From Candidatus Woesearchaeota archaeon (GTDB lineage Archaea; Nanobdellota; Nanobdellia; Pacearchaeales; GW2011-AR1), in the NCBI GenBank assembly GCA_964604715.1, contig CAZRZR010000002.1, positions 1 to 48,279 of the forward strand: 48,279 bases of DNA, given 5' to 3'. The notes below the pieces were generated by a model. The model did no database searches. It saw nothing but the letters and a program-made list of their open reading frames with translations, and was not told where the DNA came from. Each line of letters starts with the position of its first letter. The first letter of the stretch is position 1. Shown one piece after another: positions 10,975 through 28,346 of the stretch. The position numbers were made by a program, and so were the translations under genes.

Positions 10975-11017
10975 TTGTTAACAACAAATTTAAAAACCCA
11001 ATCATTCCCTATATTCA

Positions 11018-11155
11018 ATGGCTCAATATAAATGTTTTAAATGCGGAAAAGTTTTGACAAGTAAAATTCTTGAAAAGCGTTTCGTTTGCCCTGCGTGCAA
11101 TTCTAAAATCTTTTACAAACCACGTAAGCACGTTGTGAAGATTAAGGCAGTATGA
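11018..11155 (+). CDS. rpoP: DNA-directed RNA polymerase subunit P (Rpo12); small ORF absent from the supplied track
   Basis: My translation is MAQYKCFKCGKVLTSKILEKRFVCPACNSKIFYKPRKHVVKIKAV, 45 aa, with a CxxC...CxxC ribbon. It sits in the conserved archaeal rpl37ae-rpoP-pfdB order. ATGA overlap with the prefoldin start. Confidence 0.8.
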   Translation: MAQYKCFKCGKVLTSKILEKRFVCPACNSKIFYKPRKHVVKIKAV

Positions 11156-11481: not shown

Positions 11482-11506
11482 ATTATGTAGAGAATCAAGC
11501 ACGATA

Positions 11507-11517
11507 ATATTTATAAA
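11507..11517 (+). promoter_or_regulatory. TATA box of sepF
   Basis: ATATTTATAAA is centred about 26 nt upstream of the ATG at 11539. Confidence 0.45.
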
Positions 11518-11538
11518 CTGTATAACGTTCCATCTCCT

Positions 11539-11922
11539 ATGGCATTCAGCTTAAAAAAGATGTTCGGAAAAGAAGGTGGACAAGAAGACTACCTTGAAAT
11601 TGATGTTGGTCAAGCTCAAGAAGTTAAAAGCAAAGTTATTGTTCGACCATTTGTACTTAAACAGTACGATGACATTACAGAAATTCTTAACTCATTAAGA
11701 GAAGGGTACACTATTGCAGTTATTGATATAAAGACAATCAAGTCTAAGGATGTTATTGAATTAAAGCGCGCTATCGCTAAGATAAAGAAAACAGTCGAAG
11801 CAATGGAAGGATCTATTGCAGGCTTTGGCGAGAATACAATTATAGCGACTCCTCCATTTGCAGAAGTGCATAAGGCTCAAGACAAGGCAATGCCTAAGAA
11901 AGATAGTTTAGAGCTATATTAA
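11539..11922 (+). CDS. sepF: SepF-like cell division protein (FtsZ membrane anchor)
   Basis: 127 aa. An N-terminal amphipathic MAFSLKKMFGK is followed by DYLEIDV...VIVRPFVLKQYDDITEILNSLREGYTIAVIDIKTI...IAGFGENTIIATP, the SepF/DUF552 pattern. Confidence 0.72.
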   Translation: MAFSLKKMFGKEGGQEDYLEIDVGQAQEVKSKVIVRPFVLKQYDDITEILNSLREGYTIAVIDIKTIKSKDVIELKRAIAKIKKTVEAMEGSIAGFGENTIIATPPFAEVHKAQDKAMPKKDSLELY

Positions 11923-12442: not shown

Positions 12443-12465
12443 TAGTGTAATTGTCAAGTTACAAC

Positions 12466-14115
12466 ATGAAAAGATCAGTCAGCTTATTACTTTTGACTTT
12501 TGTACTATCCTTAGCTCTAGTTTCCACAATGGTAATTGCAGTAGATACATCATCTTTGATTCTAACTGCCTCAGACTCTCATATAGTAATTGGTCAAAAT
12601 ACAAGCCTTACACTGACTAATGTTAACAGCTCGGCCGCAGTTACTTCTATCTTTTTCACCACAACTGGCTCAAGTGGCGGATTTAATCTTAAATTTACAC
12701 CTTCAACAATCTCAACGCTAGATGCTAACACTGCTCAAACAATAAATATCACTCCTATTAATATAAACGGTCTTTCATTCGGTAATCACGAAATAACTGT
12801 AAACGCGGTAGGTAATATTTCTGGCAGTCAAACAGTGCAGACTTCTGTGCCTTTAACCCTTGATAAAGGATTATGTGAAGCTGGACCACGCGGAACAAAT
12901 CTTACGTTATCCCGAGTTAAAATAAGAAGCAGTGGCGATAAAGATGAAGAATGGAAACTTCTTGACACTGTAGAAGTTGAAGTAAAAGTAGAAGATCGTG
13001 GTGAAGATATAAATGACGTATTCGTTGACCTTGTATTATATGATGGCTCAGGAAATGACGTTACTGGAAGCCTTGAATTCTCGAATGCTGATGAAGACCA
13101 AATTGAATTGGGCGACTTTGGACACAATGATGATGATACTGCAACATTTGAATTCCAAGTTCCTGCAGACTTTGACACTGGAAGTTATAAACTAGCTGTG
13201 AAGGCCTACTCTGATGGAAACGAAGACAAGGATTGTATAGACTCTTCAGGCAACCTTAACAATCGCATTTTCCAATCAATAAGCGTTAAACAGGAAAACG
13301 ATGATGACAAGCTTATCACAATCGATAATGTGCATTTACCAAGCGAAACAACCTGCGCAGAATCAGCATCAGGATCATTTGAAGTCTTCAATGTTGGAGA
13401 TAAAGATCAAGACCAAGTAAGAATCACAATGTTCAACAAAGAGCTTGGGCTTAATCAAGAATTTGAAATCAGAAACAATCTAGACAGAGGAGATAGCGAA
13501 GTCATAGACTTTACTCTAGACTTACCTAGCAATATGCAGAATAAGAAATATCCTATTATGTTTAGAGCGGAATATGGCTATCGAAATGGAAACTATCAAG
13601 ATCGTTCCGATGATCTTACCAGGGGAAGTCTCAATATAATCGGTTGTGCTAGTTCAGGATCTGGTTCAAACACAGGATCAGGAAACTTGAATGATGTTGA
13701 TATCAGTCCAACTCTAAAGTCTTCTGCTCAAGCAGGCTCAAAGCTTGTAGTCGACGCGATAATCACCAATACAGGTTCGCAGCCAGTTACTCTTGCACTC
13801 GATGCTTCAGGATATCAATCATGGGCAAAACTTGATTCTGTATCGAGTAGAACATTATCCTTAGACTCAGGAGACAGCCAGACAGTTACTTTCACTTTCA
13901 CTGTAGATGACACTGCCGCAGGAGCTCAATCATTCACTCTTCAAGCTAGAGGCAATGGAGATTCAATCTCTCAACCTGTAGAAGTTAACCTTGAATCAAA
14001 ATCAAGTGGATTCAGTTTCAGTGGAAATGCAAGCCTCTTGTGGATAATCGGAATAATCAATGTAGTTTTGATTGTGCTTATCATTATTGTTGCAGTACGT
14101 TTATCACGCAGATAA
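12466..14115 (+). CDS. secreted cell-surface protein with beta-sandwich (CARDB-like) repeats and C-terminal TM + basic tail
   Basis: Signal peptide MKRSVSLLLLTFVLSLALVSTMVIA. Repeated patterns of the form VEVKVEDRGEDINDVFVDLVLYD / FEVFNVGDKDQDQVRITMF / AIITNTGSQPVTLALDAS. The extreme C-terminus is SGFSFSGNASLLWIIGIINVVLIVLIIIVAVRLSRR. Confidence 0.8.
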   Translation: MKRSVSLLLLTFVLSLALVSTMVIAVDTSSLILTASDSHIVIGQNTSLTLTNVNSSAAVTSIFFTTTGSSGGFNLKFTPSTISTLDANTAQTINITPININGLSFGNHEITVNAVGNISGSQTVQTSVPLTLDKGLCEAGPRGTNLTLSRVKIRSSGDKDEEWKLLDTVEVEVKVEDRGEDINDVFVDLVLYDGSGNDVTGSLEFSNADEDQIELGDFGHNDDDTATFEFQVPADFDTGSYKLAVKAYSDGNEDKDCIDSSGNLNNRIFQSISVKQENDDDKLITIDNVHLPSETTCAESASGSFEVFNVGDKDQDQVRITMFNKELGLNQEFEIRNNLDRGDSEVIDFTLDLPSNMQNKKYPIMFRAEYGYRNGNYQDRSDDLTRGSLNIIGCASSGSGSNTGSGNLNDVDISPTLKSSAQAGSKLVVDAIITNTGSQPVTLALDASGYQSWAKLDSVSSRTLSLDSGDSQTVTFTFTVDDTAAGAQSFTLQARGNGDSISQPVEVNLESKSSGFSFSGNASLLWIIGIINVVLIVLIIIVAVRLSRR

Positions 14116-14149: not shown

Positions 14150-14689
14150 ATGAATAAACACTATCTTAGTTCATTAGGTTTAAGATATGGATTGCTTATT
14201 CTTATAGGTATCCTCAACCTTATATTAAGCGAGAAAGGCCTGTTCTATGTTATATTTACTCCACTTACCGTTTATCCTTCCTATTTCTTTTTGCATTTTA
14301 TGTATGATGCAACTATGATCTCCTCCTCAGTATTGTTTTTTAAGGGATATTACGCGACAATTATTCCAGCATGTATCGCCGGTTCAGCCTATTATTTATT
14401 GCTTATCCTTGCAATGGCTACACCAATGAACCGTATAAAGCGTCTAGAAGTAATCACGTTCGTTTTTGCACTCTTCCTCAGTCTAAATATATTTCGTATT
14501 GTTTTTTTTAGTTCTCTTCTCTTTACCGGTTATACCTACTTTGACTTCGCCCATAGGGCTATATGGTACTTTGGCAGCACTATTCTTGTCGCGCTATTAT
14601 GGTTTGCTACAGTCTTTTCTTTTAGTATAAAAGAAGTTCCATTTTACAGCGACGTCAAAAAGTTGATAAAAGAAATATATTCTAAGTAA
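14150..14689 (+). CDS. short exosortase/archaeosortase-family protein (putative)
   Basis: 179 aa and polytopic. It has spaced Cys/Arg/His motifs resembling the family's catalytic triad context: IIPACIAGSAYY, SLNIFRIVFF and FAHRAIWYFGS. It lies 35 nt downstream of a protein with a sortase-type C-terminal tripartite signal. Confidence 0.6.
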   Translation: MNKHYLSSLGLRYGLLILIGILNLILSEKGLFYVIFTPLTVYPSYFFLHFMYDATMISSSVLFFKGYYATIIPACIAGSAYYLLLILAMATPMNRIKRLEVITFVFALFLSLNIFRIVFFSSLLFTGYTYFDFAHRAIWYFGSTILVALLWFATVFSFSIKEVPFYSDVKKLIKEIYSK

Positions 14690-15356
14690 GTAACTGGCTC
14701 GCTGCAGTCGTAGCATTACGTGCATTAAGGATAGATTCTAACTTAAACTTCTCTACAGCTTCTTGTACTTTGCAATCAGGTCCAATAATTATCTGATGGC
14801 AATTACCGTTTACATGTATTTTTGTTTCGTCTCCGCCCTTTAGTTCAATTACTTCTACAGTAGGGGATAGATTACTACAGGAATAATGGGTTTGATTTGT
14901 TATACGTGCTTCTGTTTCGTTCATTAATCCGTTAAAGACTTTGATTTGATTTTGAGTCAAAAAGAGCCCTAGATCTACAACTGCCTGGGTACTATCATTG
15001 CAAGTATTAGGGTAACTTGAGTCAAACGTCATGTAAGCATATGCCTTCTCAAACAGCACAGGATCACCTTCCACAGTTACATTATTAGTTCTAGGGTCAT
15101 GCCTCAAGTACAGATTGAACTGTACGGGTTGCCCAATTTTATTTTTAAAATAATAGTAATAATGGTAGACCGTAAGTTTATCAAATCTCTCTTTAGTGAA
15201 TTCTAGTCCGCGATAGTTAAAATGGCTTAATGATTTGAAGTAAGCTCCCGCAATCCAGTAAATTAAAATAAGTATTGCAATAAAACCTACTACTTTGAGT
15301 ATATCTTTTTCAAGTATTTTCTCTGTTTTAGTAGCTTTAGTTACCGTCGGTTTCAT
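14682..15356 (-). CDS. N-terminally anchored extracytoplasmic protein, hypothetical
   Basis: 224 aa with TM VVGFIAILILIYWIAGAYF and an ectodomain with 4 Cys and N-x-S/T sequons. The stop overlaps the convergent archaeosortase stop by 8 nt. Confidence 0.65.
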   Translation of the reverse strand: MKPTVTKATKTEKILEKDILKVVGFIAILILIYWIAGAYFKSLSHFNYRGLEFTKERFDKLTVYHYYYYFKNKIGQPVQFNLYLRHDPRTNNVTVEGDPVLFEKAYAYMTFDSSYPNTCNDSTQAVVDLGLFLTQNQIKVFNGLMNETEARITNQTHYSCSNLSPTVEVIELKGGDETKIHVNGNCHQIIIGPDCKVQEAVEKFKLESILNARNATTAASQLLT

Positions 15357-15391: not shown

Positions 15392-15928
15392 CTAACTTAT
15401 TCCGAAGAATCTATAGAGGAATGCTTCTACAGCTAATGAATCTCCATCGATAAATACGCACGAATCATTAACATATACTCTGTTTGTCTTACTTGGAGTC
15501 CAAACGATAAGTACATCTGCGCATGTTTTTTCAGGCAAGCTCTGATCTTCACATGCCCCGTAGCAAGCTTGTTGTACTCTCTCTGCCTGGGTGCTTGCTG
15601 CTGCGGCAATCTGCTGAAAAACAGCAATGTCGCTTGCAGCAATATATACAGGTTTGTTTACATAGTCCTGGCCAGAGAAACTGCCTTCTATGGGCACTTG
15701 GCGAGTTTCATTAGTAGAGTGAATAAAACTGAATTGTACACCATTAGCGTTCACTATATGCGAGGAATCTTCTAAGTTCGTAGACCCAACACTATCTTTT
15801 GAGCCTATAAGTGAAAGAGCATAACCAAGGACGCTTCCAAACATAAGCAATACAAGTAAGACTCCTAGAATAACTTGCTTTCTCTTCTGTCCTTCTTCGC
15901 GCGAGCTTTCATTGCCTATTCGTTTCAT
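15392..15928 (-). CDS. N-terminally anchored extracytoplasmic protein, hypothetical
   Basis: 178 aa with TM VILGVLLVLLMFGSVLGYALSLIG, followed by a Cys-containing domain. It lies directly downstream of the S-layer gene. Confidence 0.65.
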   Translation of the reverse strand: MKRIGNESSREEGQKRKQVILGVLLVLLMFGSVLGYALSLIGSKDSVGSTNLEDSSHIVNANGVQFSFIHSTNETRQVPIEGSFSGQDYVNKPVYIAASDIAVFQQIAAAASTQAERVQQACYGACEDQSLPEKTCADVLIVWTPSKTNRVYVNDSCVFIDGDSLAVEAFLYRFFGIS

Positions 15929-16011: not shown

Positions 16012-18636
16012 TTAACTAAGTACTGGTGTCACGCTTGTAGCGGTTGATCCGGTATATTTCTTACCAGTCATCGTGTCAATCGTGTTAGACTTAAGAGCGT
16101 TAGCAGCATTCGTTGTGTCTTCAGCATTGTAGCCGGCGACAAGTAAAGCAATTTTACTTGAACTCCAAGGCGATGCAAAGCTTTGAATAACGTACGAACC
16201 AGCATTTACTCCGGTCTTAGCAGAGAAGTCTGCACCGCAAAGCGGTGAAGAGCTACCAAGTAATTTAGATGCAGCTGTATTAATACAACTACCTCCAAGA
16301 ACTACTAGGTTCTTACTGCTCACACTGGATACTTCGCTGTCTTTAACAACAATATTTCCAAGTACTCCGCCATTGCCATTGCTGACACTAGCTTCGCCTT
16401 CTGAAACATACACTTTCGCTTGAACTTGTTCATCAGGATAGCTGATGGTTGCTGTCTTCTGGTCACTTTCAGCATTATCAAGGGTCACTAATGATCCACG
16501 ATATGTGAGTAACTGAGACAAGTCATCATTGCTTTCCATAGTGATAAAGCTATTCGATAGTGCAGACGTACTTCTTACCGTATTAACTCCAAGTCCATCT
16601 GTAGATGTACCTGCGCCTTCTAGAGTTATAATCATAGCAGGCCAGTTGTTATTACGGTCTTCTTCCTCTTCAAATACAACAAGTGCAGGGGAAACGATGT
16701 TACCTCCGTCTACTGGATTTACCAAGTAGATTGTTGTAGTTGCAGGACCTGCATACGTAAAGTTGTAAGTAAGTGCACCTGCCGAAGCAGTAGTTGCATT
16801 AACTAACGCGTTTACTTGAGTTCCACCGACGGTAAAGTTAATACCGTTTGCAGAAACTGCAGTCGCAACCGAACTAGCATAGTCATCCCCGTCAGGGAAC
16901 AAGAAGCTAGATACGTTCTGATAGGTTGTACCAAGGAAGTTTGTTAAGTTGACAGTTAAAGGTTCGTAGAATGCTACTTTAGCACCCTTTGAAGTTTCAA
17001 TTGTTGGATAAGCAACTAGGCCGTTACTTGAGCTGTCTGGATAGTTCAATCGAACAAGGATGTTATCATTGTCTCCTGAAGCACCGACATACGTAACTGT
17101 ATAGGTTCGTCCACCAACTGTAAGTGTACCCGTACCATCAGCAGTGATAGTAGTGTGATACTCTTTCGAGGTATCGAACACATCTCGGAATACAACTTCG
17201 TCATCCGAATAACCATTACCTGATGTACTGTTTGTTACGGTCTTCAGTTCGAGAAGATACCCCTCGTCCTGATTTCCTACAGTAACGTACATAGATCGGT
17301 TAAGCGGAGCGCCTTCAACAACCTTGATAAGGTCTCTTCCTTGATCACCATGAGCAAGTCTTATAGTTTGCGATTGGTTATTTACAAACTCCATGGCTTT
17401 CTCATTATTTCGATGGTCAGTGAATTCGACTCTCATTCGGTCATCACCTGAATTATCAACTTTAATCATGTCTCTAGATGTTGAGTCTAGATTCTCGTTC
17501 AAAGCTGAAAAGTCAATCTTGAAGCTTCCCCAGACTGGGTCTAAGAAAGTCCCTCCTGCTGCAACAGCGTCTGTATCGCTATCATCAGCATATGTCTGGA
17601 TACGAATTTGTGTTAAAGCGCCGACAGTTCCAATTAAGTCTACTGTAGATCCTTCGATATTATCTTCGTTAGCACCATATTTGACATTTTGTCCATCTTG
17701 AAGGACAATTTTGTTACTTCCAACAGTTACTTCAGCAGTAACAGAACCGAGAGCCTCGGATTCGTCAGCAGAAGTGACTGCGACTTCAACTCCATTTACC
17801 TTTTTGGATTGATCTTCATCAATCTCTTTGCTTTCAACTTTTCCTGAGCTATCAGTAACGCGAAGTGTCGCGCTAGAATCTGATCCAGAAACAAGTTCTA
17901 CGGTATATGTGTTTCCATCTACAGTAACGGTCTTTGATGGGGCAGGCGTACTTCCTCCTAGGGACAAGACAAACTTTTCAGAAGATTTGTAAAGTACAAT
18001 CTCTGAACTTGTTGAGTCTGAACCTACGGTCCACTCTTTTCCGAAAAGGTTAAGAGTTTCTCCTTGTGAGTCAGCATTCGTAAGATTAATTGCGCGATCA
18101 AATACTATAGTGCTATTATACACCGTATTTGATGAAGAAGTACCAAGACGTATGTAGACTTGTGGATCGTTGTCAGTTGTTGGTTCTTTACCGAACAAGA
18201 CTCGTCCATAGCTACTAAGATCAATAGTCTGGGTATAATCAGCATCTACATCTCCTGAGAAGCTACCGTCTGCAAGAACAGATGGAAGATCATCAGCAGT
18301 GATAGAAGCTCGTGCTGCATTAATCGAATCGTTTAGATAAAGTTCTGTGGAGCTAGTAAAGAGCGGGAAAACATCACCAGTCGTAGTTGTGGTACTTGTG
18401 GTTGTTGATGAACTTCCTCCTTGGGAAACAAAAGCTGTTCCAAGGTCTGCGCTCAATGCAGTAGCTGCAGACATATCACTAGTAGCGGCACTTTGTCCTA
18501 CTACTATTGCTACATCAGCCTTACCATTCTGTACGAATGGAGCAGGGTAGTTTGCGGCAGCAGCCAAAGCTACTGTAGAAACTCCTAGCAATAAGGATGA
18601 AGCAGCAGACGCGATTTTTCTAAAATTAAATTTCAT
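16012..18636 (-). CDS. putative S-layer / major surface glycoprotein (paralog 1)
   Basis: Signal peptide MKFNFRKIASAASSLLLGVSTVALAAAANYPAPFV. There is a Thr tract TTTSTTTTTG, many N-x-S/T sequons and almost no Cys. GGAGG lies 9 nt before the ATG at 18636 (the track used TTG at 18645). It has a long structured leader and a strong T-tract terminator, and is a paralog of 46574..48279. Confidence 0.7.
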   Translation of the reverse strand: MKFNFRKIASAASSLLLGVSTVALAAAANYPAPFVQNGKADVAIVVGQSAATSDMSAATALSADLGTAFVSQGGSSSTTTSTTTTTGDVFPLFTSSTELYLNDSINAARASITADDLPSVLADGSFSGDVDADYTQTIDLSSYGRVLFGKEPTTDNDPQVYIRLGTSSSNTVYNSTIVFDRAINLTNADSQGETLNLFGKEWTVGSDSTSSEIVLYKSSEKFVLSLGGSTPAPSKTVTVDGNTYTVELVSGSDSSATLRVTDSSGKVESKEIDEDQSKKVNGVEVAVTSADESEALGSVTAEVTVGSNKIVLQDGQNVKYGANEDNIEGSTVDLIGTVGALTQIRIQTYADDSDTDAVAAGGTFLDPVWGSFKIDFSALNENLDSTSRDMIKVDNSGDDRMRVEFTDHRNNEKAMEFVNNQSQTIRLAHGDQGRDLIKVVEGAPLNRSMYVTVGNQDEGYLLELKTVTNSTSGNGYSDDEVVFRDVFDTSKEYHTTITADGTGTLTVGGRTYTVTYVGASGDNDNILVRLNYPDSSSNGLVAYPTIETSKGAKVAFYEPLTVNLTNFLGTTYQNVSSFLFPDGDDYASSVATAVSANGINFTVGGTQVNALVNATTASAGALTYNFTYAGPATTTIYLVNPVDGGNIVSPALVVFEEEEDRNNNWPAMIITLEGAGTSTDGLGVNTVRSTSALSNSFITMESNDDLSQLLTYRGSLVTLDNAESDQKTATISYPDEQVQAKVYVSEGEASVSNGNGGVLGNIVVKDSEVSSVSSKNLVVLGGSCINTAASKLLGSSSPLCGADFSAKTGVNAGSYVIQSFASPWSSSKIALLVAGYNAEDTTNAANALKSNTIDTMTGKKYTGSTATSVTPVLS

Positions 18637-18645
18637 TTTTTTCAA

Positions 18646-19019: not shown

Positions 19020-19379
19020 ATGGCATCAAAGACTAAAACACGCGAGATAACTCTGGTAGATGAGAAAGGCACATTCTCTTTATTGTTCAAAAGACTATAT
19101 GGGGAAAAAGAAGAGCTTAATTTCGAAGGTTTAGCGGCTCTTCGTGCCGTTCTTTCCAATGAAAAGGCGAGAATTATGCACACCATCAAAACCAAAAACC
19201 CTCTTTCAATATATCATCTTGCAAAATTGCTCGGAAGAGATTTTAAATCAGTAAATGAAGACATTAAGTTATTGCAGCGTTTTGGATTCATTGAATTAGT
19301 TTCTGAAAAAACGGGGAAAAGACAACGCTTGAGACCTTTACTGAGCGTAGAGTCCATAAAGATAGAAATTAAGGTTTAA
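19020..19379 (+). CDS. winged-helix transcriptional regulator (HVO_A0114/antitoxin-like HTH family, tentative)
   Basis: 119 aa. LRAVLSNEKARIMHTIKTKNPLSIYHLAKLLGRDFKSVNEDIKLLQRFGFIELV...GKRQRLRP is a wHTH with a C-terminal beta hairpin. Its stop overlaps the stop of the convergent pilin-like gene by 4 nt. Confidence 0.65.
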   Translation: MASKTKTREITLVDEKGTFSLLFKRLYGEKEELNFEGLAALRAVLSNEKARIMHTIKTKNPLSIYHLAKLLGRDFKSVNEDIKLLQRFGFIELVSEKTGKRQRLRPLLSVESIKIEIKV

Positions 19380-19885
19380 GAGCATACTTCTAGTGTGGTG
19401 TGAATAGTGCCGCCCTCAGAAGGCTGAAGCTCACTAGCGCCCCGTAAGGTGCGTCCAGAGGTACAATTTCCATAACTAAAGGCCAGAATAGGCATCCTCT
19501 CAGTACTTCCATTATAAGGCCAGTAAGAAGAGCTAAAATTATATCCTACAAGAGGCCTATCTTGCCCTATATTCAACCCTTGTTTAATAAGCAAGGGTAA
19601 TGTTTCATTAAGAATTTGACAGGCTGATCTTTGATCTACACACGTACTTCCCTCTCTACATTCATTAAACAACTCCTTAACTCTTGCATGTTCTTGTGTT
19701 CTAAGACTACAATCTGTAGTATATTCTAGGGAACTTGCAAGGAATTGTTGTACTGTAACGCTCTTTCGAGTCTCAGGTGTAGAGTGTAGATTGAATGCGA
19801 GAAAAATAAGCATGACAATTGCAAGAAGTATCACTATAACTACAAATCCTACTATCTCTTCTTGTCCCTTTTTCATCGGTTTCAT
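19376..19885 (-). CDS. type IV pilin-like protein (class III signal peptide), P4
   Basis: The N-terminus MKPMKKGQEEIVGFVVIVILLAIVMLIF has a basic-Gly site then a hydrophobic helix. It has 6 Cys in the globular part. ATGA overlap with the upstream gene. Confidence 0.7.
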   Translation of the reverse strand: MKPMKKGQEEIVGFVVIVILLAIVMLIFLAFNLHSTPETRKSVTVQQFLASSLEYTTDCSLRTQEHARVKELFNECREGSTCVDQRSACQILNETLPLLIKQGLNIGQDRPLVGYNFSSSYWPYNGSTERMPILAFSYGNCTSGRTLRGASELQPSEGGTIHTTLEVCS

Positions 19886-20403
19886 GCCGAGTTTACTCCC
19901 ATAACAATCTTTCCTAACTCGCAGTGCGTCTCAGAGTAAATAGAATCAAATCTACATAAAGCAACGAACGCTTCTTCACTAGTATAATTGCTTTTTTTAT
20001 TTATCAGAGTTATTGTGTTACACGAAGGGTAATTTGCCCGAGTACATTCAATAGTCTTGTTATCAGAAGGATATACTTTCTTTATTTGTAGCTTTCCGAT
20101 GTTGTTCCCCCAAAATCCAGTGTAGCTTGTAATGTTTTTCAGGGCAAACACTTTATCTTCATCAACACAGCTTGCACAATCATCAACCGTCCAAGCAAAC
20201 TCAGGAGAGGCAGACATTTTTCTAACGAGTTCTTGGGCTTGCTCGTGACGTATGTCTGTTGCTGCAGACTTCAGTGAATTCAATTTGAAAGAAAAATAAA
20301 AAAGCGCCGCAAGTCCAAAAAGGAGTATAAATGCTACAAGTACAAAAGCCATCTGCTGTATCTTTAGCTGTCCTTTAGAAGAGCGGGCAAATAAGTTTTT
20401 CAT
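19882..20403 (-). CDS. type IV pilin-like protein (class III signal peptide), P3
   Basis: N-terminus MKNLFARSSKGQLKIQQMAFVLVAFILLFGLAALFYF. Cys-containing head domain. Overlaps the upstream gene by 29 nt. Confidence 0.65.
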   Translation of the reverse strand: MKNLFARSSKGQLKIQQMAFVLVAFILLFGLAALFYFSFKLNSLKSAATDIRHEQAQELVRKMSASPEFAWTVDDCASCVDEDKVFALKNITSYTGFWGNNIGKLQIKKVYPSDNKTIECTRANYPSCNTITLINKKSNYTSEEAFVALCRFDSIYSETHCELGKIVMGVNSA

Positions 20404-21304
20404 TTTGATTGGAAAGTTGTTCGGACTCTACGACGAGTGAACTCAATGCGATTCGATTATCTTTTAGATGAGCTGAGTAGGCTTGCAGTTCCGAAGCCAT
20501 GTTAGAAGAGCATCCTTGAGCCGAAAGGGCATTAGTTTTCCCAATATAGACTGATGCAAGTTCGTTAGCACGCTTTCTTAACCGAGTAAGTTGACAGTTG
20601 TATATATCAGGATCCGAGAAAATAGCAGAGTAGAGTAAAGGGCCGTAGTAATCTAAATTTTTCCTTTGGAGAGTGACTTTTCCAGACAAATCACTATTTT
20701 GAGAAACACTGACATTGCAACCAGTCCCAGAAAAACATACGCTTATGCTATCTTTCTTGCAACCAGTCTTGGTTTGACTAGTGCTAATAAGAGGCACGTT
20801 CCATGAGGCAATATCTGAAGCAACATCCTCAGGAGGTTGTACAAAACAATAGTCCTTATCTATGACAATAATCATATCTCCTATTTTATAAGGTAAATTA
20901 ACTGGCTGGACAATAAGATAAAATGCCTGTCCTTGAACTGTTTCTTGAGAGAAAATATACTTATTTGAAAAGCTTGCCGGAGTGCCTGCATCATTCCACG
21001 TTTTTCCAAACGAATTGCGGACGCTAACTTGTAATTGTTGTAAACCAAAAGTGCCTTCTACATTACATATATTCCTCAATCGCGTTTCATCGGGAAATAC
21101 TAGAGGGTATGTTTTACTCGTTTCTAGATTAGTTTCTACAGGATTAAGAATAACCCCCAATTGGGCTGCGACTTTAGTATTATACTCGCGTGAGCTTGTA
21201 TCAACAAGTTGCGTAGCGGTATAAACAGCAAGCGATATTATTGCTATACCTACAAACAAAGCAAAAATCCATGCAAAACTAAACTCAAATCCTTTGTGGT
21301 TCAT
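20375..21304 (-). CDS. type IV pilin-like protein (class III signal peptide), P2
   Basis: N-terminus MNHKGFEFSFAWIFALFVGIAIISLAVYTA. 309 aa with several Cys. ATGA overlap with the upstream gene. Confidence 0.7.
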   Translation of the reverse strand: MNHKGFEFSFAWIFALFVGIAIISLAVYTATQLVDTSSREYNTKVAAQLGVILNPVETNLETSKTYPLVFPDETRLRNICNVEGTFGLQQLQVSVRNSFGKTWNDAGTPASFSNKYIFSQETVQGQAFYLIVQPVNLPYKIGDMIIVIDKDYCFVQPPEDVASDIASWNVPLISTSQTKTGCKKDSISVCFSGTGCNVSVSQNSDLSGKVTLQRKNLDYYGPLLYSAIFSDPDIYNCQLTRLRKRANELASVYIGKTNALSAQGCSSNMASELQAYSAHLKDNRIALSSLVVESEQLSNQNEKLICPLF

Positions 21305-21777
21305 AGAGGTTTTAATAGCACGAGGCTATCTTCGCTGTTCTTCTCAAGCGAAACTGTTGCCTTGCCCTTACTTGTTTTTATGCAAAAGAACGTCGAAAAG
21401 CGCACGTGCTTAAGATTAGCATATTTGACACTACAAGAGGAAGGGGAAATATAATAGAAGAGATTTGCATCTCTTCCTTCATACCTTTTCAGGATATTAT
21501 ATTCTGGTTTATTCTTTGCCTGTGTTACATCGCCCATACAAATTTCATCCACTGATCCAGGAATAACTCCCGTAAATGTATCGTGCACGCTGTCAGAATT
21601 CCATGCATCGTCTATCTTGACCTGTAAATCTCTTGCATATAAACCTAATTCAGTGCATTGCTTGAGTTGTAAAAAATACCTTATTGCATACACTGCCGTT
21701 CCGAGTATTGCAGCAATAATAATAATCGAGAGTATCATTCCAAAAGAGAGCGATATATCTCCTTTTTTTCTCATCAT
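21301..21777 (-). CDS. type IV pilin-like protein (class III signal peptide), P1
   Basis: The N-terminus MMRKKGDISLSFGMILSIIIIAAILGTAVYA resembles the archaeal pilin QxSxExxxL-type motif region. It starts 3 nt after the stop of the 884-aa gene. Confidence 0.7.
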   Translation of the reverse strand: MMRKKGDISLSFGMILSIIIIAAILGTAVYAIRYFLQLKQCTELGLYARDLQVKIDDAWNSDSVHDTFTGVIPGSVDEICMGDVTQAKNKPEYNILKRYEGRDANLFYYISPSSCSVKYANLKHVRFSTFFCIKTSKGKATVSLEKNSEDSLVLLKPL

Positions 21778-21780: not shown

Positions 21781-24435
21781 TTAGGTAAGCGTGGATGCTC
21801 CCACGACAATTGAACATGCATTAGGGCTTGGTTCGTTACCCCAGTCATCTCTACACTTAATGAAATAGCTTTGTTGTGGTTTCCAAGGTGTAGCGTGAAC
21901 GCCTCGCTCTTGCGAATTCAAAAGAAGCATATTAATTCCTTCTTCAAATACAAAATTACAGCTTGAAAGCGAATAAGAGCACTGAGCGTCTTCATTTGTT
22001 ACTAGCTTTAGTGCATCAGATTCTTTATACACACGAGTTACTTGAGGTGCAGATCTATCGGTTAATATTGTGAACGAGGTGTTCTTTTGATCAAGGTTTC
22101 CTCCTGCATCAATACATCTGAAGAAATACGTATAACTTCCACTAGGCAGGCTCAAGATTTGTTTGTGCTTCCAATCATTAGTTTCAAACATAGTAACATA
22201 ATCTCCTTCTTTTCCGGTCGGGCTAAAGTAACAGGTCGCCTTCCCTTCGTCTGCACCATCGTCAGTAGTCGCCGTAAGGTTAACTTGAACGATGGAGGTG
22301 CTCCCAGTAATTGTGCTATTAGGGCCAACTGCGAGTATAGAAAGGCTTTGTGTACCTTTGAGAGTAAATGCATAACTTTCCTGATTGGTATTTCTCTCGT
22401 TTTCAGGTTTTAATGGCTGATCTTTACAACGGAAGAAGAAAGCATTGTCTTCCTTGTCCTTTATGCCTCCAAGTGTCGTCGTACATGGATATAGTTGCTG
22501 TGCATTCTGTTGGTAGACGTGAGATGAACAGCTCATGTTATTTTCCATCAGGTCAAATCCCTTGTCTTGTTTGCTCCATTTACATTCAGAAGGTTCGTTT
22601 ACAAATAACGACAATGTGGTATTTTGTACACCAAACGTAACTGCGCTTCCTGAAGTTATTGATGTGCTCTCAATAACAGGAGGCGTACTATCTGGGCTCT
22701 TATCCACGCACATATTGAATACAAACTCATCTTCATTTACATTTCCATTTGCGTCACGACATCGTACATAGAAGTTGTACAATCCTTCAGAAGGTAATTC
22801 AGGAGATTCAGCAGTCACAGAATCGGGAGAAGGCAACCTTAATTTTTCAGTATGATTGTAAGCAAACAAATTGCTTTCTCCAAAGTAGAACTGCATTTCA
22901 TCAAATGTTTTGTTGCTTATAATATCTATTTTACATTGCGAAGGCTCATCTGTCCTCAAACCAAACTCTAATGCAGTGAATGGCTGTATACATCCGTCAG
23001 TAGATTGAGAATATTTTATTTGTGTTCCTCGCGAAGGTGGTCTGCCGCGCATATCCGTGTACACGTGTTTCTCAGTCAGCACTTCTTTCCAGGGAGTTAT
23101 CAATGGGGACTTGACGTCGTTTCGCGCAATCCAAACACAACGTTCTTGAGTCGTACCTTTATTGACAATATCACATGCTTGTCCTAAAGACTTACATCGA
23201 TACTCTGAACATGGCTTAAGAGGATCTTGATTACATCTCTCACAATCAGCTCCTCCAAGTGGTGCTTCCCAAGGCAAACATTGCAATGTAACTACTTTCT
23301 GTTTTTCTTTCTTGTATAAAAGAATAAACACGACTGCAGCTATACCAACACCAATTAATGCTGCCTGAGGCCCAGTAAGTGTCTGCGTCCATATTCTTTG
23401 ATTTCCTAAGGTGCCTGCACCTTTTCCAAACAATCCATAAATTGCCTGTCCGCCCATAATGCCTGCAAATGCTGCTGCACTTATCGCATTTGTCAGTTTA
23501 GAATCTCCCCCAAACAATGGAACAAGTAATTGTACTGCTCCCACAACAAGAAGAGACCACGTCAGCCCATCAGCTAAATGCCCCAAGAAAAATCCGGGAA
23601 CGTCAATTAATCCGAATAAGCTTCCTTGATATTCGCTTGTACCAACTGCTGATTTTATTAATGCCCCACTTTTCGTATCATAAACTTCCAAGGCCTTTCC
23701 ATCCTTGTCAAGCAGCGTCGTAGTGGTATCCGTTACTCTTACGTCAGCAACATTTTCAAAACCTGGCTTGCCTTGGATATCCTTCAAACTTTTTATGCTA
23801 CTTAAAGCCGGAGCTTCCTGGCCGAAGTGTGCATATTGGTAATCAGAAACTTGCGTCTTAGGAACATAATTAAGATCTCCGCCCTCTAGAGCTTTCTGAG
23901 CAGTGGCTTTATCTACAGGATAGAGGGTTCCTTTGGAATCTATAAGTCCAGCATCGGTATATTTTAACGTTGTACCGGTTGGAATTGTTGATGATCCCAC
24001 TTGAAGAGGTTTAGTTGTACTATACATATTTGTTGCACTATTAGGCGGGATAGGTCTTTTTGTAGAAAGAAGAGATGCTGCTTGAACTAAACCTCCGGCA
24101 GCCCCAACAGGATTAGTTTGTGGAGGAGGAGCAGTTCCAGAAACACTTGGCGCTTGCGATTGAGCAGAAATTGATTTCTGCGCTGCTTCTCGAGAGGTAA
24201 AGAATTTTCCACTTTGCAACTGTGCATCACTTGGCGTACCGCCAATATGTTCTGCGACATAAGGTTCTCCAGTAGTAGGGTCTGTTGTAGTGAAATAATA
24301 ATGTGTAGTATCGGCAGCAGAAACAATATTTGTTTGTCCAATAATAAATGAGATTGCTATAGTCGAAAGAACAATTAGGAAAATTTCACTTAATGCAGCG
24401 GAACGTAACACGTTTGAACCCTCTTTCGACATCAT
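21781..24435 (-). CDS. large modular surface/membrane protein G2 (Cys-free N-domain, Gly/Ala-rich TM block, four Cys-pair beta modules)
   Basis: 884 aa. The N-terminal anchor is RSAALSEIFLIVLSTIAISFIIG. The central hydrophobic Gly-rich block runs LLVVGAVQLLVPLFGG...AAAFAGIMGGQAIYGLFGKGAG...ALIGVGIAAVVFILLY. The C-terminal 520 aa are collinear with the C-terminus of 28343..32182 (TLQCLPWEAPLGGADCERC...FYVRCRDANGN...FFFRCKD...YFFRCIDAGGN...YFIKCRDDWGN). It has its own TATA, TTTATAAAT at 24454-24462. Confidence 0.8.
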   Translation of the reverse strand: MMSKEGSNVLRSAALSEIFLIVLSTIAISFIIGQTNIVSAADTTHYYFTTTDPTTGEPYVAEHIGGTPSDAQLQSGKFFTSREAAQKSISAQSQAPSVSGTAPPPQTNPVGAAGGLVQAASLLSTKRPIPPNSATNMYSTTKPLQVGSSTIPTGTTLKYTDAGLIDSKGTLYPVDKATAQKALEGGDLNYVPKTQVSDYQYAHFGQEAPALSSIKSLKDIQGKPGFENVADVRVTDTTTTLLDKDGKALEVYDTKSGALIKSAVGTSEYQGSLFGLIDVPGFFLGHLADGLTWSLLVVGAVQLLVPLFGGDSKLTNAISAAAFAGIMGGQAIYGLFGKGAGTLGNQRIWTQTLTGPQAALIGVGIAAVVFILLYKKEKQKVVTLQCLPWEAPLGGADCERCNQDPLKPCSEYRCKSLGQACDIVNKGTTQERCVWIARNDVKSPLITPWKEVLTEKHVYTDMRGRPPSRGTQIKYSQSTDGCIQPFTALEFGLRTDEPSQCKIDIISNKTFDEMQFYFGESNLFAYNHTEKLRLPSPDSVTAESPELPSEGLYNFYVRCRDANGNVNEDEFVFNMCVDKSPDSTPPVIESTSITSGSAVTFGVQNTTLSLFVNEPSECKWSKQDKGFDLMENNMSCSSHVYQQNAQQLYPCTTTLGGIKDKEDNAFFFRCKDQPLKPENERNTNQESYAFTLKGTQSLSILAVGPNSTITGSTSIVQVNLTATTDDGADEGKATCYFSPTGKEGDYVTMFETNDWKHKQILSLPSGSYTYFFRCIDAGGNLDQKNTSFTILTDRSAPQVTRVYKESDALKLVTNEDAQCSYSLSSCNFVFEEGINMLLLNSQERGVHATPWKPQQSYFIKCRDDWGNEPSPNACSIVVGASTLT

Positions 24436-24483: not shown

Positions 24484-25125
24484 TCAAGGTTTGATAGAAA
24501 AATCGCTTTCTGCATAGGGTGCATTATTTGATCGCCATGTCGCTTTGTAATTCCCAGGTTGGAACTGCCTGCAATTATATATTAATATATGAAAGGAAGT
24601 GTCTATTGTAGCATTAACTGTGGACACATCTGTATGACTGTCAGTATTTGAAAGAGTAAATTTTATATCTCCAGGGTTAGTCTTGTTTATAGCAGGAATA
24701 TAAACGCCAATAGCAAGGTTTTCATTTCTAGAAAAATCCCTCTTAAGTCCTTTAATTTCTACAGCTGCGATAGCTCCATCCTTATCTTCATCAACCCATT
24801 CATTACAAACGAAACTGCGGCCATTTTGAGGAATAAATGCAGTTGAGCTTATAATCGGTGTTGGGGTGGTATATGAAGGCCCGTAAGCAAGAGCGTAATC
24901 GGGAACGTCAGAAGAAGATGAAGTAAGGGTAACGCTATCTCGTTCTGCACCTCGAGCCGCTTGAGCAACGCCAGCAGCAGATAGTATATCGCCCACTGGT
25001 CCTCCAATAGCTGCGCCACTAAGTATGGCCAATCCACCAGGTTTAGGTTTAGCAAATTCTTCACAACCAGTCAGACTTACTAGGCCAGCTAGTCCTGTCG
25101 CCATAAGACTCTTTCTGATATTCAT
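24484..25125 (-). CDS. putative lipoprotein with canonical EF-hand-type Ca2+ loop
   Basis: Lipobox-like LVSLTGCEE after MNIRKSLMATGLAG. DEDKDGAIAAVE (aa 112-123) fits DxDxDGxIxxxE exactly. A TATA-like ATATTTAAATAAT lies about 27 nt upstream. Confidence 0.7.
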   Translation of the reverse strand: MNIRKSLMATGLAGLVSLTGCEEFAKPKPGGLAILSGAAIGGPVGDILSAAGVAQAARGAERDSVTLTSSSSDVPDYALAYGPSYTTPTPIISSTAFIPQNGRSFVCNEWVDEDKDGAIAAVEIKGLKRDFSRNENLAIGVYIPAINKTNPGDIKFTLSNTDSHTDVSTVNATIDTSFHILIYNCRQFQPGNYKATWRSNNAPYAESDFSIKP

Positions 25126-25181: not shown

Positions 25182-26009
25182 TTACTTGAGTTTACTCGTT
25201 CCATCAAATTCAGAACGCATGCGCTCAAGATCCTTTCGTTCTTGCTCAAGTCGTTGCTCGGTTTCTTCTATCTTTTCCTTCTTTTTTATGCGCTCAAGAT
25301 CTGCGCTAGCTTCTCTGATCTTCCTTTCCGCATCTTCAATTTTAGCTCGCATATCTTCCTTAGGTGCTGGTTGGTTAATAGCAGGCGATAGTCTCGGCAA
25401 ACTCTTTTGGGCAATAGACTCAGGATTGCTTGGAGCTTTTGGTGTTCCTCGAATCTTAGCTCGCACAGCAAATGAAGCAACAAGAAGACCTACAAGCAAT
25501 ACAGCGCCGATAAGATAATATTTATAACTGCCTAATCTCCCATTCTCCGACGTAGCAAAACCAGTAAGCCCTGGAGCAGTAGAATTGGTGCTCTCAAGGG
25601 TTGTTGAAGCAGTATTGTTGCTCTCGTTTACGTCTGAGCTAATATTTTGCTCCTTGTAAATGGCTGGTGCTTCAGCATCATGTTTTTTAGGTAATTGAAC
25701 ATAAATAGGTTCTCCAGCAGTGAACCCTCTGAATCGTTCATAGTAGGCTGTCTCACCGCCTATTTTAACATACACGGCAAGATCAAATTCTTCTTTATCC
25801 CCATTGTAAGTTACTGAAACGTTACCTGTATCGCCCGCAGGCAAGTCATAGAAACTCTGTACGGCGTAGTATGTATCTGCTGTTTCAAGAATAGAAACAG
25901 TCACTGTAACGCCTTGTAAGGTTTCAACATTAATTTGTGTGCTTGCGGCAACAGTAAAAGGGGTAATAAGAATGATTGCGAGCATCAACACTATTTTTTT
26001 ATTCATCAT
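25182..26009 (-). CDS. type I membrane protein: signal peptide, beta-rich ectodomain, S/T/N linker, TM, coiled-coil cytoplasmic tail
   Basis: Signal peptide MMNKKIVLMLAIILITPFTVAAS, TM YYLIGAVLLVGLLVASFAV, and tail EDMRAKIEDAERKIREASADLERIKKKEKIEETEQRLEQERKDLERMRSEF. Confidence 0.75.
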   Translation of the reverse strand: MMNKKIVLMLAIILITPFTVAASTQINVETLQGVTVTVSILETADTYYAVQSFYDLPAGDTGNVSVTYNGDKEEFDLAVYVKIGGETAYYERFRGFTAGEPIYVQLPKKHDAEAPAIYKEQNISSDVNESNNTASTTLESTNSTAPGLTGFATSENGRLGSYKYYLIGAVLLVGLLVASFAVRAKIRGTPKAPSNPESIAQKSLPRLSPAINQPAPKEDMRAKIEDAERKIREASADLERIKKKEKIEETEQRLEQERKDLERMRSEFDGTSKLK

Positions 26010-26049: not shown

Positions 26050-27552
26050 CTAACCTCCGTTTATAGTTACTTGTAAGCTATTCTTGTATCCTTTTTTGCT
26101 CAGATAATTTACCTTTGAGCCACAATCCCCTAGGGCTTGACATACTTCTCCATACTTTGCTTCCCAGCCCGGTTGCAAACATTCGCAGTTCTCGGTACAT
26201 TCCTCTCCCCCTAGTAATCCTTTCTCAAATTTCACAACACATACTTTGTTTCCAGCTCCGCATACAATTTTAGATTCTTCACTATTCCAGAAAGCAAGCC
26301 CAGGAGAGTTTTTAGGCAAACATACTGCATTAATCGTCGCATTTCCTAAGGTAACTCCCTCTTTCCAGAAGCAGTCGCGTCTATCAGGGTTTTCGCAATC
26401 TTCTTCAGCTGTCTGGGCTAAGCAATCTTGCCACCGATTAACTCTACACGCTGCCTGTGAAAAGCTTCCTTCAGATGTTTGAATATCTTGTTGTACGCAT
26501 TCCTGTGCTCTAAAATCATCGCATGGTTCAGTTAATACTTCTCCATTCATGCAAATACGTCTGAAGAACCCGCTCCCAACTGTGCTTTTCCCAATAGAAT
26601 TCTTTTTATCATCTGCTATGCACCAGCTTTCTCCATGTTTTCTATCCTTGCCATTCTCATCGGTACAAGAAAGATCTGCACAAATAAGACTTCCAAAACG
26701 AGGTTTGGTTGCTCCAAGAGTCGTAGGCCTGCAATAACTTCCTAAAAGATAATTACAATTCCCGCAGCTTGCACTGTTGGCGTTTGCCGAACCAGGGCTG
26801 CAACTTTCAGATTTAGTTTTGACATTTGTCCAATAATCTTTATCATTTGTTTTTGAAGAGTCGTATATGTTAGCTGCATTTCCACATGTATCTGTATAAT
26901 AGATTTCATCTTTGCCCGGTAAACAAGTCGTTTTTGTGGATGGGCCACAAATGGTGCCTAGTTCTTCTGCAGAACAGAGTTTATCTTTGTAAAACGTACC
27001 AGCAGAGTCGCTTTTATTCAACCTTTCAGAACTACCGTCGCATTCGGCTCGCGTTGTAAATTTACATGTCTTTTGAAATTCGAACTCATATACGCAAGCA
27101 CCCCTGTCTTGTTGTTGAACAGTAGCAATACATGCAAGTTCATTAGATATTGTTTTATCATAATTTGTTTGTAGACCTAAGAATGAAGAAAGTTTTTTAC
27201 ATCGTACAAGTGATGTAAATGCTGCTTGATCGCCTAAAATACAACATCCAAGTTGACATTGGGGAGGCGTTTGCTCACTCCAAGTGCCTCCGTTATTATT
27301 ACATACAAGCTGTGGCGTATTATCTAAGCAAGTGCCTTCATTTGAGTCATAACAGGTGCCTGCTTTACAATAACTAGTAGATTCACAACTCGTTGGAACT
27401 TGACGTGAACTTGGATCGCACGCATCTGCAGGTACATTCTGACAAAAAGCGCCAGTCTTTGTCTTTTCACAACACACGGTAGCAGTCAGATCAGCAGCAC
27501 TAACAAAGCTTAGCAGGAGAATAAGAAACATAAGACCAAATAAATACCTCAT
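26050..27552 (-). CDS. secreted Cys-rich protein C1 (paralog of the N-terminal ectodomain of G1)
   Basis: Signal peptide MRYLFGLMFLILLLSFVSA (the ATG at 27552 forms an ATGA overlap with the upstream stop). About 50 Cys. Collinear matches to G1 include GCCILGDQAAF/GCCLIGNQALY, CGNCNYLLGSYC/CGNCNYLAGSVC, DLSCTDENGKDRKHGESWC/DLSCTDENGNKRKHGESWC and ACRVNRWQDC/ACRANQWQLC. No TM anchor. Confidence 0.85.
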   Translation of the reverse strand: MRYLFGLMFLILLLSFVSAADLTATVCCEKTKTGAFCQNVPADACDPSSRQVPTSCESTSYCKAGTCYDSNEGTCLDNTPQLVCNNNGGTWSEQTPPQCQLGCCILGDQAAFTSLVRCKKLSSFLGLQTNYDKTISNELACIATVQQQDRGACVYEFEFQKTCKFTTRAECDGSSERLNKSDSAGTFYKDKLCSAEELGTICGPSTKTTCLPGKDEIYYTDTCGNAANIYDSSKTNDKDYWTNVKTKSESCSPGSANANSASCGNCNYLLGSYCRPTTLGATKPRFGSLICADLSCTDENGKDRKHGESWCIADDKKNSIGKSTVGSGFFRRICMNGEVLTEPCDDFRAQECVQQDIQTSEGSFSQAACRVNRWQDCLAQTAEEDCENPDRRDCFWKEGVTLGNATINAVCLPKNSPGLAFWNSEESKIVCGAGNKVCVVKFEKGLLGGEECTENCECLQPGWEAKYGEVCQALGDCGSKVNYLSKKGYKNSLQVTINGG

Positions 27553-28346
27553 GAAAGTACTCCATACCCTTGTGGCCAAACTAAACTTCGGGTTGCAAAT
27601 CTAAATTTTTCTTGGCTTATCACGTTTCTTAATGTGTATAACGTGTCATCGCCCTTTTTGAGCTTTTCTATAACGAGGTTTGGATAATATCTAACATATA
27701 ATGAAGTATCAGAATCTCCAAGCGTAGACTCAAATTGTACAATACTTAATGCAGTCGTTAATAAATCATAGCTTTGGCTTGGCAGTCTAACTACAAATTT
27801 ACTAAATGTCTGTTTGCTATCTTTTGAAATAGTCATCGCTGCGTTGACATCTACTATTACCGCTTCAGGCACAATACTGACGTTTACCGAAGGTTGAGCA
27901 ACCGTAACTTGATATCCTTTTTGTTCATAGTTCTGTTGTAAAGACTGAATACAATTGCGAGCAGTCTGCGTTAATCGCTGTTCTAATTGCTTTTCAACAT
28001 GTGAAACCAGTAACGGTTGTTGTACAAGACAAGGCTTATAATTTTCGCTTGTATAACAGAGATAAGAAAATTGTAAATCATTGTTAAGTACATAACTTGT
28101 CGGGGTATAGTCGCCTCCGTGTTCCATAATAATAGGTAACGCTTTTTTTAGTTCTGGTTCTATACATTGGCGTACATAGCTTGAAGGGTCGACTTCATTG
28201 GTAAAGACAGTCAAATTAGGTCGCACCAAGAACCAAATCACTGCTGCAATAATTACAACAGCGACAATTACGAATATCGCAACTTGACCTCTTTTTTGCA
28301 TACTTTCAAAAGATCTAGTTTGTTTATAACGTTTTCTAGATATCAT
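27549..28346 (-). CDS. type IV pilin-like protein (class III signal peptide), A2 (paralog of A1)
   Basis: The class III-like N-terminus is MQKRGQVAIFVIVAVVIIAAVIWFL. It is collinear with 32182..32937 (YLCYTSENYKPCLVQQP vs YLCKNINYYEPCINQYP, and so on). The ATG at 28346 forms an ATGA overlap with the G1 stop. Confidence 0.75.
   Translation of the reverse strand: MISRKRYKQTRSFESMQKRGQVAIFVIVAVVIIAAVIWFLVRPNLTVFTNEVDPSSYVRQCIEPELKKALPIIMEHGGDYTPTSYVLNNDLQFSYLCYTSENYKPCLVQQPLLVSHVEKQLEQRLTQTARNCIQSLQQNYEQKGYQVTVAQPSVNVSIVPEAVIVDVNAAMTISKDSKQTFSKFVVRLPSQSYDLLTTALSIVQFESTLGDSDTSLYVRYYPNLVIEKLKKGDDTLYTLRNVISQEKFRFATRSLVWPQGYGVLS

Follow-up and report, generated by a model that had tools for sequence, protein, structure and literature searches.

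Tandem genes for putative class III pilin-like proteins in a conserved envelope gene island of Pacearchaeota and Woesearchaeota

Contig CAZRZR010000002.1 of a Candidatus Woesearchaeota archaeon (GenBank assembly GCA_964604715.1) is 48,279 bases long on record, all of which were analyzed and are referred to here as the window (G+C ~39%). Its housekeeping genes encode PCNA, primase, ribosomal proteins L1/L10/L11, FtsZ, SepF, Hjc, and eIF5A, and many other genes encode surface proteins. A first-pass annotation, made from the sequence alone, had described six proteins with archaeal class III (prepilin-like) N-termini, four of them encoded in tandem; a check of the open reading frames (ORFs) finds all six where they had been placed, on the minus strand. 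These proteins, P1–P4, A1, and A2, are the main subject of this report (a slash marks the putative processing site; aa, amino acids):

21301–21777, minus strand: P1, 158 aa, first gene of the P operon, N-terminus MMRKKG/DISLSFGMILSIIII
20375–21304, minus strand: P2, 309 aa, N-terminus MNHKG/FEFSFAWIFALFVG
19882–20403, minus strand: P3, 173 aa, N-terminus ...SSKG/QLKIQQMAFVLVAF
19376–19885, minus strand: P4, 169 aa, N-terminus MKPMKKG/QEEIVGFVVIVILL
32182–32937, minus strand: A1, 251 aa, N-terminus MNKKG/QMAIFVIVAIILV, directly upstream of the gene for the giant Cys-rich protein G1
27549–28301, minus strand: A2, 250 aa, likely N-terminus MQKRG/QVAIFVIVAVVII, directly upstream of the gene for the Cys-rich protein C509

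The N-termini read as they had been quoted, each with a basic leader, a Gly, and a single N-terminal hydrophobic window, and the several Cys ascribed to each protein amount to 4–8. A helix of at least 20 residues directly follows the site in all six proteins (from hydropathy and, for P2 and P4, from AlphaFold2 models); a C-terminal sorting signal, consisting of a transmembrane helix and a basic tail, was not found in any of them by hydropathy. The tandem arrangement is equally real: consecutive genes from P1 to P4 overlap by 4, 29, and 4 nt, and 3 nt separate the start of P1 from the stop codon of the gene for G2, a large surface protein. A1 and A2 are paralogous (27% identity, E 2e-33, BLASTP); for A2, orthologues favor the ATG at 28301 as the start, with an alternative start possible at 28346.

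The putative processing site was followed through orthologues of P1–P4 and of the A family from 78 related species. Species-representative genomes were scanned, which gave 78 loci, and 84 loci were used in all, with ~20 kb per relative; the nearest relatives of the P and A genes are found in metagenome-assembled genomes labeled Pacearchaeota, Woesearchaeota, or Nanoarchaeota. The N-terminal alignments were anchored on motifs inside the helix, so only positions outside these anchors count as independent evidence. The consensus sequences are [KR][GA]Q-x-x-x-SFGMIFSIIII for P1, K[KR][GA][FIL]E[FM]SF[AGT]W[LI]FA for P2, [KR][GA]Q[LM]KIQ[QE]MAF for P3, [KR][GA]QEE[IM]VGF for P4 (in which K-G/A-Q-E-E-x-x-G-F is nearly invariant), and [KR]GQ[VI]T[IL]F[IV]I for A. 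Position −1 is occupied by G, A, or S only (P2, G 74%/A 22%; P3, A 52%/G 44%/S 4%; P4, G 48%/A 43%/S 6%; A, G 93%/A 6%), and position −2 is K or R in 81–96% of orthologues. At +1, Gln is present in 100% of P3 and P4 sequences and in 64% of P1 sequences, the latter at an inferred position; it is also present in 100% of the A family, though there it lies inside the alignment anchor. Exceptions to Gln at +1 are Asp in the window's P1 and Phe, Ile, or Leu in the P2 family (Phe in the window's P2). Farther into the helix, 97% of P3 orthologues have K at +3, residue +5 is Gln in P3 and Ser in P1, and Glu occurs at +2/+3 in P2 and P4 (column statistics); the invariant residues of P2 are E7, F10, W12, F14, G19, and 8 Cys. 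Leaders ahead of the site vary in length and in sequence, and conservation sets in sharply at the site, from position −2 onward.

Because residue −1 is limited to G, A, and S and conservation begins so abruptly at −2, this pattern suggests a protease site rather than a topology signal, and it argues against the view that the six proteins are uncleaved signal anchors. In that alternative, the main one, they would be type II (N-in) single-pass proteins inserted by Sec/YidC, the basic residues would follow the positive-inside rule, and G/A-Q together with the polar helix residues would serve packing in a membrane-embedded envelope complex, perhaps one involved in tethering or assembling the surface-layer (S-layer) protein of a neighboring gene, which has no anchor of its own; we regard this alternative as doubtful, though not to be dismissed. 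The site also resembles experimentally established ones. The Epd pilins of Methanococcus maripaludis are processed at RAQI, KGQV, KGQV, KGQL, and KGQI (PMC4371748, Table 1), and the peptidase EppA requires Gln at +1, while PibD enzymes are tolerant at this position (PMC4371748). Because it matches the Epd sites, and because EppA needs the +1 Gln, the site in A1, A2, P3, P4, and most P1 orthologues is, as judged from its residues, of the EppA kind; identity with proven EppA sites is a further point against uncleaved anchors.

The specificity of the signal was measured against three control families from the same loci, two with N-terminal anchors and one with a Sec signal:

15392–15928, minus strand: d1, N-terminally anchored, Cys-containing, without a [KR][GAS]Q site
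14682–15356, minus strand: d2, N-terminally anchored, Cys-containing, without a [KR][GAS]Q site
26050–27579, minus strand: C509, 509 aa, 43 Cys, Sec-type signal peptide, a free-standing version of the N-terminal Cys-rich domain of G1

The dipeptide [KR][GAS] lies no more than 8 residues before the helix in 90–97% of P1–P4 and A sequences vs. 12–21% of sequences in the three controls (15–21% in d1 and d2 alone), and [KR][GAS]Q occurs in 0% of control sequences. A census of ORFs of at least 35 aa with a hydrophobic stretch near the start, covering ~1.4 Mb of related loci, assigned 227 of the 236 ORFs with [KR][GAS]Q and a hydrophobic start to P1, P3, P4, or A. Mean pairwise identity among P1–P4 orthologues is 0.52–0.61 over the first 32 aligned columns vs. 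0.29–0.38 over the heads, and in the A family it is 0.44 at the N-terminus vs. 0.37 over the remainder; the corresponding values for d1 and d2 (0.37/0.34 and 0.20/0.31) show no excess like that of P1–P4. The genuine anchor families d1 and d2 have neither the site nor a helix of raised conservation, which argues against uncleaved anchors for the P and A proteins, and the conservation of the site together with its specificity against the controls indicates that the signal is specific and under selection.

The same data bear on a chance resemblance of low-complexity hydrophobic N-termini without any shared biology. Profile–profile comparison of the N-termini would be compatible with it, since transmembrane composition bias prevents this method from separating the P and A proteins from the control anchors; because it scores with those anchors too (P2–d2, 86%), it was dismissed as evidence. 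Chance resemblance is already contradicted by a site that is retained in orthologues from 78 species and is nearly exclusive to the P and A families; as an explanation it is almost certainly wrong. A pattern match within a single genome is weak evidence by itself, because a FlaFind-like rule selects three Sec-like proteins of the window in addition to A1, A2, P1, and P3.

The P genes form a stable unit across the lineage. BLASTP searches of the window proteins against the ORFs of the 84 loci found P1 in 78, P2 in 84, P3 in 80, and P4 in 76, invariably in the order P1-P2-P3-P4, and a G gene precedes P1 in ~40 loci. P2 has 41 close homologues, all unannotated, and a profile search placed at least 1583 representative clusters in its family at E<=1e-3, of which 414 reach E<=1e-30; an identical P2 sequence was not retrieved from public assemblies. 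Conserved Cys columns number 8 in P2, 5 in P3, 4 in P4, 4 in A, and 2 in P1, and N-glycosylation sequons are also present; these features point to an extracytoplasmic location of the P and A proteins. The P heads are related neither to one another nor to A (BLASTP; profile–profile probability <7%). The AlphaFold2 model of P2 (predicted local distance difference test score, pLDDT, 87; predicted template modeling score, pTM, 0.81) has a helix of 44 residues (residues 10–53), a beta-rich region, and a C-terminal helical region, and that of P4 (pLDDT 89) has a helix at residues 7–33, a short break, and an alpha/beta head with conserved Cys.

Because P1–P4 occur 1:1:1:1, in fixed order and as overlapping genes, in nearly all 84 loci, they probably form a stoichiometric complex, and a heteromeric assembly of the four is suggested because their conserved helices would pack against one another. 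Processing without filament formation is an alternative in which the class III signal merely displays surface proteins of the bindosome type that act individually as separate adhesins or binding proteins. Class III signals are indeed known on non-pilin surface proteins (bioRxiv 10.64898/2026.04.22.720090), the P heads are mutually unrelated, and no major pilin is encoded nearby; nevertheless, the strict co-occurrence, order, and overlap of the four genes, as well as a strongly conserved helix that is particular to each family and carries complementary charged residues, make individually acting proteins distinctly unlikely.

Our preferred reading, to which we assign a probability of roughly 0.6, is that P1–P4, A1, and A2 represent new families of class III pilin-like subunits and that P1–P4 form a heteromeric pilus-like envelope assembly. 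According to this model, the basic leader would keep the N-terminus cytoplasmic, and a membrane aspartyl prepilin peptidase encoded elsewhere would cut after the small residue at −1, leaving Gln (Phe in P2) as the new N-terminus. The helices, retained in the mature proteins, would then pack together, with polar residues at E+2 (P2), EE (P4), K+3/Q+5 (P3), and S+5 (P1). The four co-translated P subunits would build a short heteromeric assembly of the minor-pilin or pseudopilus type, which would expose the mutually unrelated, Cys-rich heads either at the S-layer or through it, and A1 and A2 may play the same role next to the giant proteins G and C, which are Cys-rich as well. Such an assembly would probably serve envelope organization, host-cell attachment, or both.

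A number of observations weigh against this reading. Among 138 orthologues there were no matches to Pfam Class_IIIsignal PF04021 (the window's P1 reaches E 0.59) and no significant matches to Pfam Pilin_N PF07790 (two weak ones, best E 0.021); NCBIfam returned no significant match to P1–P4 or A1/A2, and sequence and profile searches of Pfam, NCBIfam, and the PDB with P1–P4, A1/A2, and G1 gave nothing significant. The first-pass annotation had proposed an alignment to the DUF361-type motif Q-x-S-x-E-x-x-x-L, which fails: column statistics reveal no conserved Glu at +5 in the P and A families. The bacterial signature G|F-(T/S)-L-(I/L)-E is likewise missing, as G|F occurs in P2 alone, where the Glu stands at +2. 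The P4 helix ends at residue 33 in the AlphaFold2 model, without continuing into the head, and Foldseek searches of the P2 and P4 models against the PDB found no significant neighbor and no pilin or pseudopilin among the matches. Ribosomal protein uS3, which supplied the best Foldseek matches to P4 (TM-score ~0.33), was treated as noise. P2 (Phe at +1) and the window's P1 (Asp at +1) do not fit a strict EppA, so that their cleavage would call either for a PibD-like enzyme of broader specificity or for two enzymes. The prepilin-type interpretation of the N-termini stands as far as the conservation of −2, −1, and +1 and the Epd-like site are concerned, and is opposed by the lack of class III or pilin matches in Pfam and of pilin matches in the PDB and by the +1 residues of P2 and P1.

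Processing and assembly machinery raises the same difficulty. Pfam searches of all window ORFs of at least 100 aa, together with an inspection of the unannotated ones, turned up no A24-type peptidase, no TadC/PilC-type platform protein, and no secretion ATPase. Nor did the related loci that were fetched contain a peptidase or platform protein: a motif scan and a clustering of all polytopic membrane ORFs, with Pfam searches of the clusters that had no annotation, recovered the sortase, VTT, SpoIIM, PAP2, GT4, and similar proteins only. In addition, type IV pilus components have been stated to be missing from DPANN genomes (He et al., bioRxiv 10.1101/2020.05.14.094862). The window also has no small headless major pilin. 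Two isolated small ORFs, of 53 aa (L048, 4413–4574, plus strand) and 63 aa (L038, 6537–6728), were found in one related locus each; the former, MNKKA/QTGFIIRVIAGVV..., lies between A and G genes and is the sole headless small pilin-like candidate inside the island. The failure to find a peptidase or platform protein in the window and the fetched loci, or an ATPase in the window, the stated absence of type IV pilus components from DPANN, the lack of class III Pfam matches, and head folds unlike those of pilins all favor uncleaved signal anchors, as does the tight synteny of the P genes with S-layer and sortase genes.

A PilB/GspE-type ATPase is encoded near the P genes of some relatives. In L018, a 609-aa ATPase (PF00437, E 2.7e-109; 7489–9318, minus strand) is divergent from P1 and directly upstream of it; this protein carries the tetracysteine motif of bacterial homologues, and its nearest relatives are in the Candidate Phyla Radiation (CPR)/Patescibacteria. 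In L085 the ATPase gene (10001–11821) lies between the FKBP and eIF5A genes, equivalent to ~6.2 kb of the window, and in L092 (4953–6953) it separates homologues of the surface protein genes at 35542–37413 and 37454–38656, equivalent to ~37.4 kb. These are three differing insertion points (that of L018 is equivalent to ~21.8 kb), all collinear with the window and within ~15 kb of the island, and in other Pacearchaeota contigs the ATPase homologues are orphan genes. The ATPase near the island is a suggestive candidate for a motor of the P and A proteins, and the orphan PilB-like gene may reflect inter-domain transfer from CPR bacteria; the linkage is limited to three genomes, one of which, L018, was found through a P2-centered locus, and this too counts against our preferred reading. 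Two other leads were discarded: the contig of the ATPase homologue P0101 (L090/L091) proved to be bacterial, and the small ORFs that follow the ATPase gene of L088 are cytoplasmic.

The P operon and the A genes belong to a conserved envelope gene island, in which the following further features of the window take part:

28343–32206, minus strand: G1, 1287 aa, 65 Cys, likely start MRKNIALFEIFLIV at ~32182
21781–24435, minus strand: G2, 884-aa surface protein, immediately upstream of P1
19020–19379, plus strand: small helix-turn-helix (HTH) protein of the HVO_A0114 family (Pfam PF25212, E 7.5e-18)
16012–18645, minus strand: S-layer-like protein (Pfam match to S_layer_C) that carries a Sec signal but lacks a membrane anchor
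14150–14689, plus strand: pacearchaeosortase (NCBIfam NF033505, E 4.8e-55, above cut-off)
12451–14115, plus strand: PACE-CTERM putative S-layer protein (NCBIfam NF033506, E 2e-148, above cut-off)

The usual order in relatives is [A - Cys-rich C - giant G] - P1–P4 - convergent HTH - S-layer-like - d1 - d2 - pacearchaeosortase - PACE-CTERM. The S-layer-like gene is the conserved downstream neighbor of the P operon, and the position of the HTH gene between the two is conserved as well. The PACE-CTERM protein ends in a transmembrane helix and an RLSRR tail, and with the pacearchaeosortase it is a complete system, located at the far edge of the island. The presence of this pair fixes the lineage of the window as DPANN of the Pacearchaeota/Woesearchaeota type. 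G2 has an N-terminal helix, ...AALSEIFLIV, with a conserved E/Q near position 5, an internal pair of hydrophobic segments, and, at the C-terminus, a Cys-rich, Ig-like region with homology to its counterpart in G1; the N-terminal helix that G1 and G2 had been reported to share is borne out by sequence comparison and by orthologues. G1 is a fusion, with residues 77–565 similar to C509 (36% identity, E 1e-76) and residues 660–1278 similar to G2 (33%, E 6e-92).

Several features of these neighbors deserve record. In the second copy, the G1 module is split into the separate genes for C509 and G2. The N-termini of G proteins follow the consensus I-A-[LI]-x-[EQ]-I-[ILF]-[IL]-L, whose E/Q is roughly the fifth residue, a placement shared with bacterial pilins; no fixed residue precedes the helix, and [KR][GAS] is nearby in just 54%. 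The HTH gene is convergent with P4, overlaps its end by 4 nt, and is kept in every locus inspected; its product is a candidate regulator of the S-layer/P operon region. Comparison of their globular parts shows d1 and d2 to be distant paralogues (hhalign probability 92%); each has 4 conserved Cys, and their genes lie between the S-layer gene and the sortase gene in almost every locus. The S-layer-like protein has a paralogue at 46574–48256 (minus strand; 32% identity over 472 aa, E 5e-61); both lack a membrane anchor, and the Pfam S_layer_C match is confined to the former. Two genes are inserted between those for C509 and G2 in this genome alone and are missing from most related loci. The product of one (24484–25125, minus strand) is 213 aa long, with a lipobox-like LTGC close to its N-terminus, and that of the other, X275 (25182–26009), has a Sec signal and a C-terminal anchor.

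Farther along the window, the gene at 39929–40663 (minus strand) encodes a secreted protein in which a staphylococcal-type nuclease is joined to a lamin-tail domain, and a second lamin-tail-domain gene (39175–40152, minus strand) overlaps or abuts it; the pair may scavenge extracellular DNA, which would be compatible with a DNA-uptake role of a pilus-like structure. The surface proteins encoded at 35542–37413 and 37454–38656 (plus strand) share a Cys-rich stalk motif (C..E.CSG...DS.DG.CC.G.C; ~53% identity over 32 aa) just ahead of a C-terminal membrane anchor, and this pair adjoins the primase gene in relatives too.

Both lineages, Pacearchaeota and Woesearchaeota, are abundant archaea that have not been cultivated and have a minimal metabolism; they belong to a group said to lack type IV pilus parts. 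For Pacearchaeota, firm attachment to hosts is suggested by size-fractionation data. Because the P1–P4 operon is conserved across the lineage beside S-layer genes, its products are candidate parts of an attachment or envelope apparatus, and the operon, with the adjacent S-layer and pacearchaeosortase genes, offers a concrete candidate for such an apparatus. A bolder proposal is that P1–P4, A, and the giant G and C proteins constitute an unrecognized pilin-based envelope machine specific to Pacearchaeota/Woesearchaeota. Its core would be a fixed heterotetrameric pseudopilus-like stalk, whose genes accompany those of the S-layer and the sortase and not those of an archaeal type IV filament (TFF) motor; in at least some lineages, a PilB-type ATPase derived from CPR bacteria would power it. 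As obligate symbionts, these archaea would employ the stalk to cross their own S-layer and to hold host cells or take up material from them; we consider this proposal rather unlikely. Proteins with class III signals are an already known kind of archaeal protein. As far as we found, the P and A families, their head folds, the four-gene operon, and its embedding among S-layer and pacearchaeosortase genes away from a TFF motor are undescribed, and our literature search found no description of pacearchaeosortase or of the P1–P4 operon; P1–P4 and A add five new protein families, which escape the pilin models and annotation pipelines now in use.

Comparison with known systems brings out both likenesses and differences. 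An Epd-type TFF system 1 has been reported in methanogens, Thermococcales, and DPANN (bioRxiv 10.64898/2026.04.22.720090). The P and A proteins share with Epd pili the K/R-G/A-Q-[VLI] site, in its K-G-Q-[VLI] form identically, with Gln at +1; in both cases several differing pilin-like proteins are encoded together, and the S-layer protein beside the P operon is also of the Methanococcus/Pyrococcus S_layer_C type. Unlike the genes of Epd pili, those for P and A adjoin no EppA, ATPase, or pair of platform genes. Their products have neither a DUF361/PF04021 match nor a conserved Glu at +5, and P2 has Phe at +1; the heads are Cys-rich with an unmatched fold, and a headless major pilin was not found.

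Bacterial minor-pilin and pseudopilin sets, such as FimU-PilVWX-PilE with PilY1 and GspH-I-J-K, act as priming or tip complexes. They resemble the P operon in having four co-transcribed genes for pilin-like proteins, one about twice the size of the others, and in the very large surface protein gene that comes first (G2-P1-P2-P3-P4); a similar layout, with products of 1329, 165, 367, and 186 aa, lies beside the PilB gene of the bacterial contig L090. In contrast to bacterial minor pilins, the P proteins lack G|F-x-x-x-E, with Glu at +2 in P2 and P4, and show no sequence or Foldseek similarity to GspK- or PilX-type structures, and the host here is an archaeon, without an outer membrane or secretin.

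The sugar-binding proteins of the Sulfolobus bindosome and the TIGR04205 family (class III signal peptide protein, archaeosortase D/PIP-CTERM system-associated) are likewise large globular proteins with a class III leader, and TIGR04205 has a link to an archaeosortase, as the P operon has to the pacearchaeosortase of the same island. The match of TIGR04205 to P1, however, is only E 0.16 over 22 residues; an ABC transporter context is absent, and the P proteins have no C-terminal sorting signal. ArlF and ArlG (FlaF/FlaG) are monotopic proteins with a pilin-like N-terminal helix, whose soluble domains contact the S-layer and anchor the archaellum in the envelope. Whereas these proteins have beta-sandwich heads and are encoded in archaellum operons, with no sequence match to the P proteins and no archaellum genes here, a role in envelope anchoring like theirs fits the synteny of the P operon with the S-layer gene.

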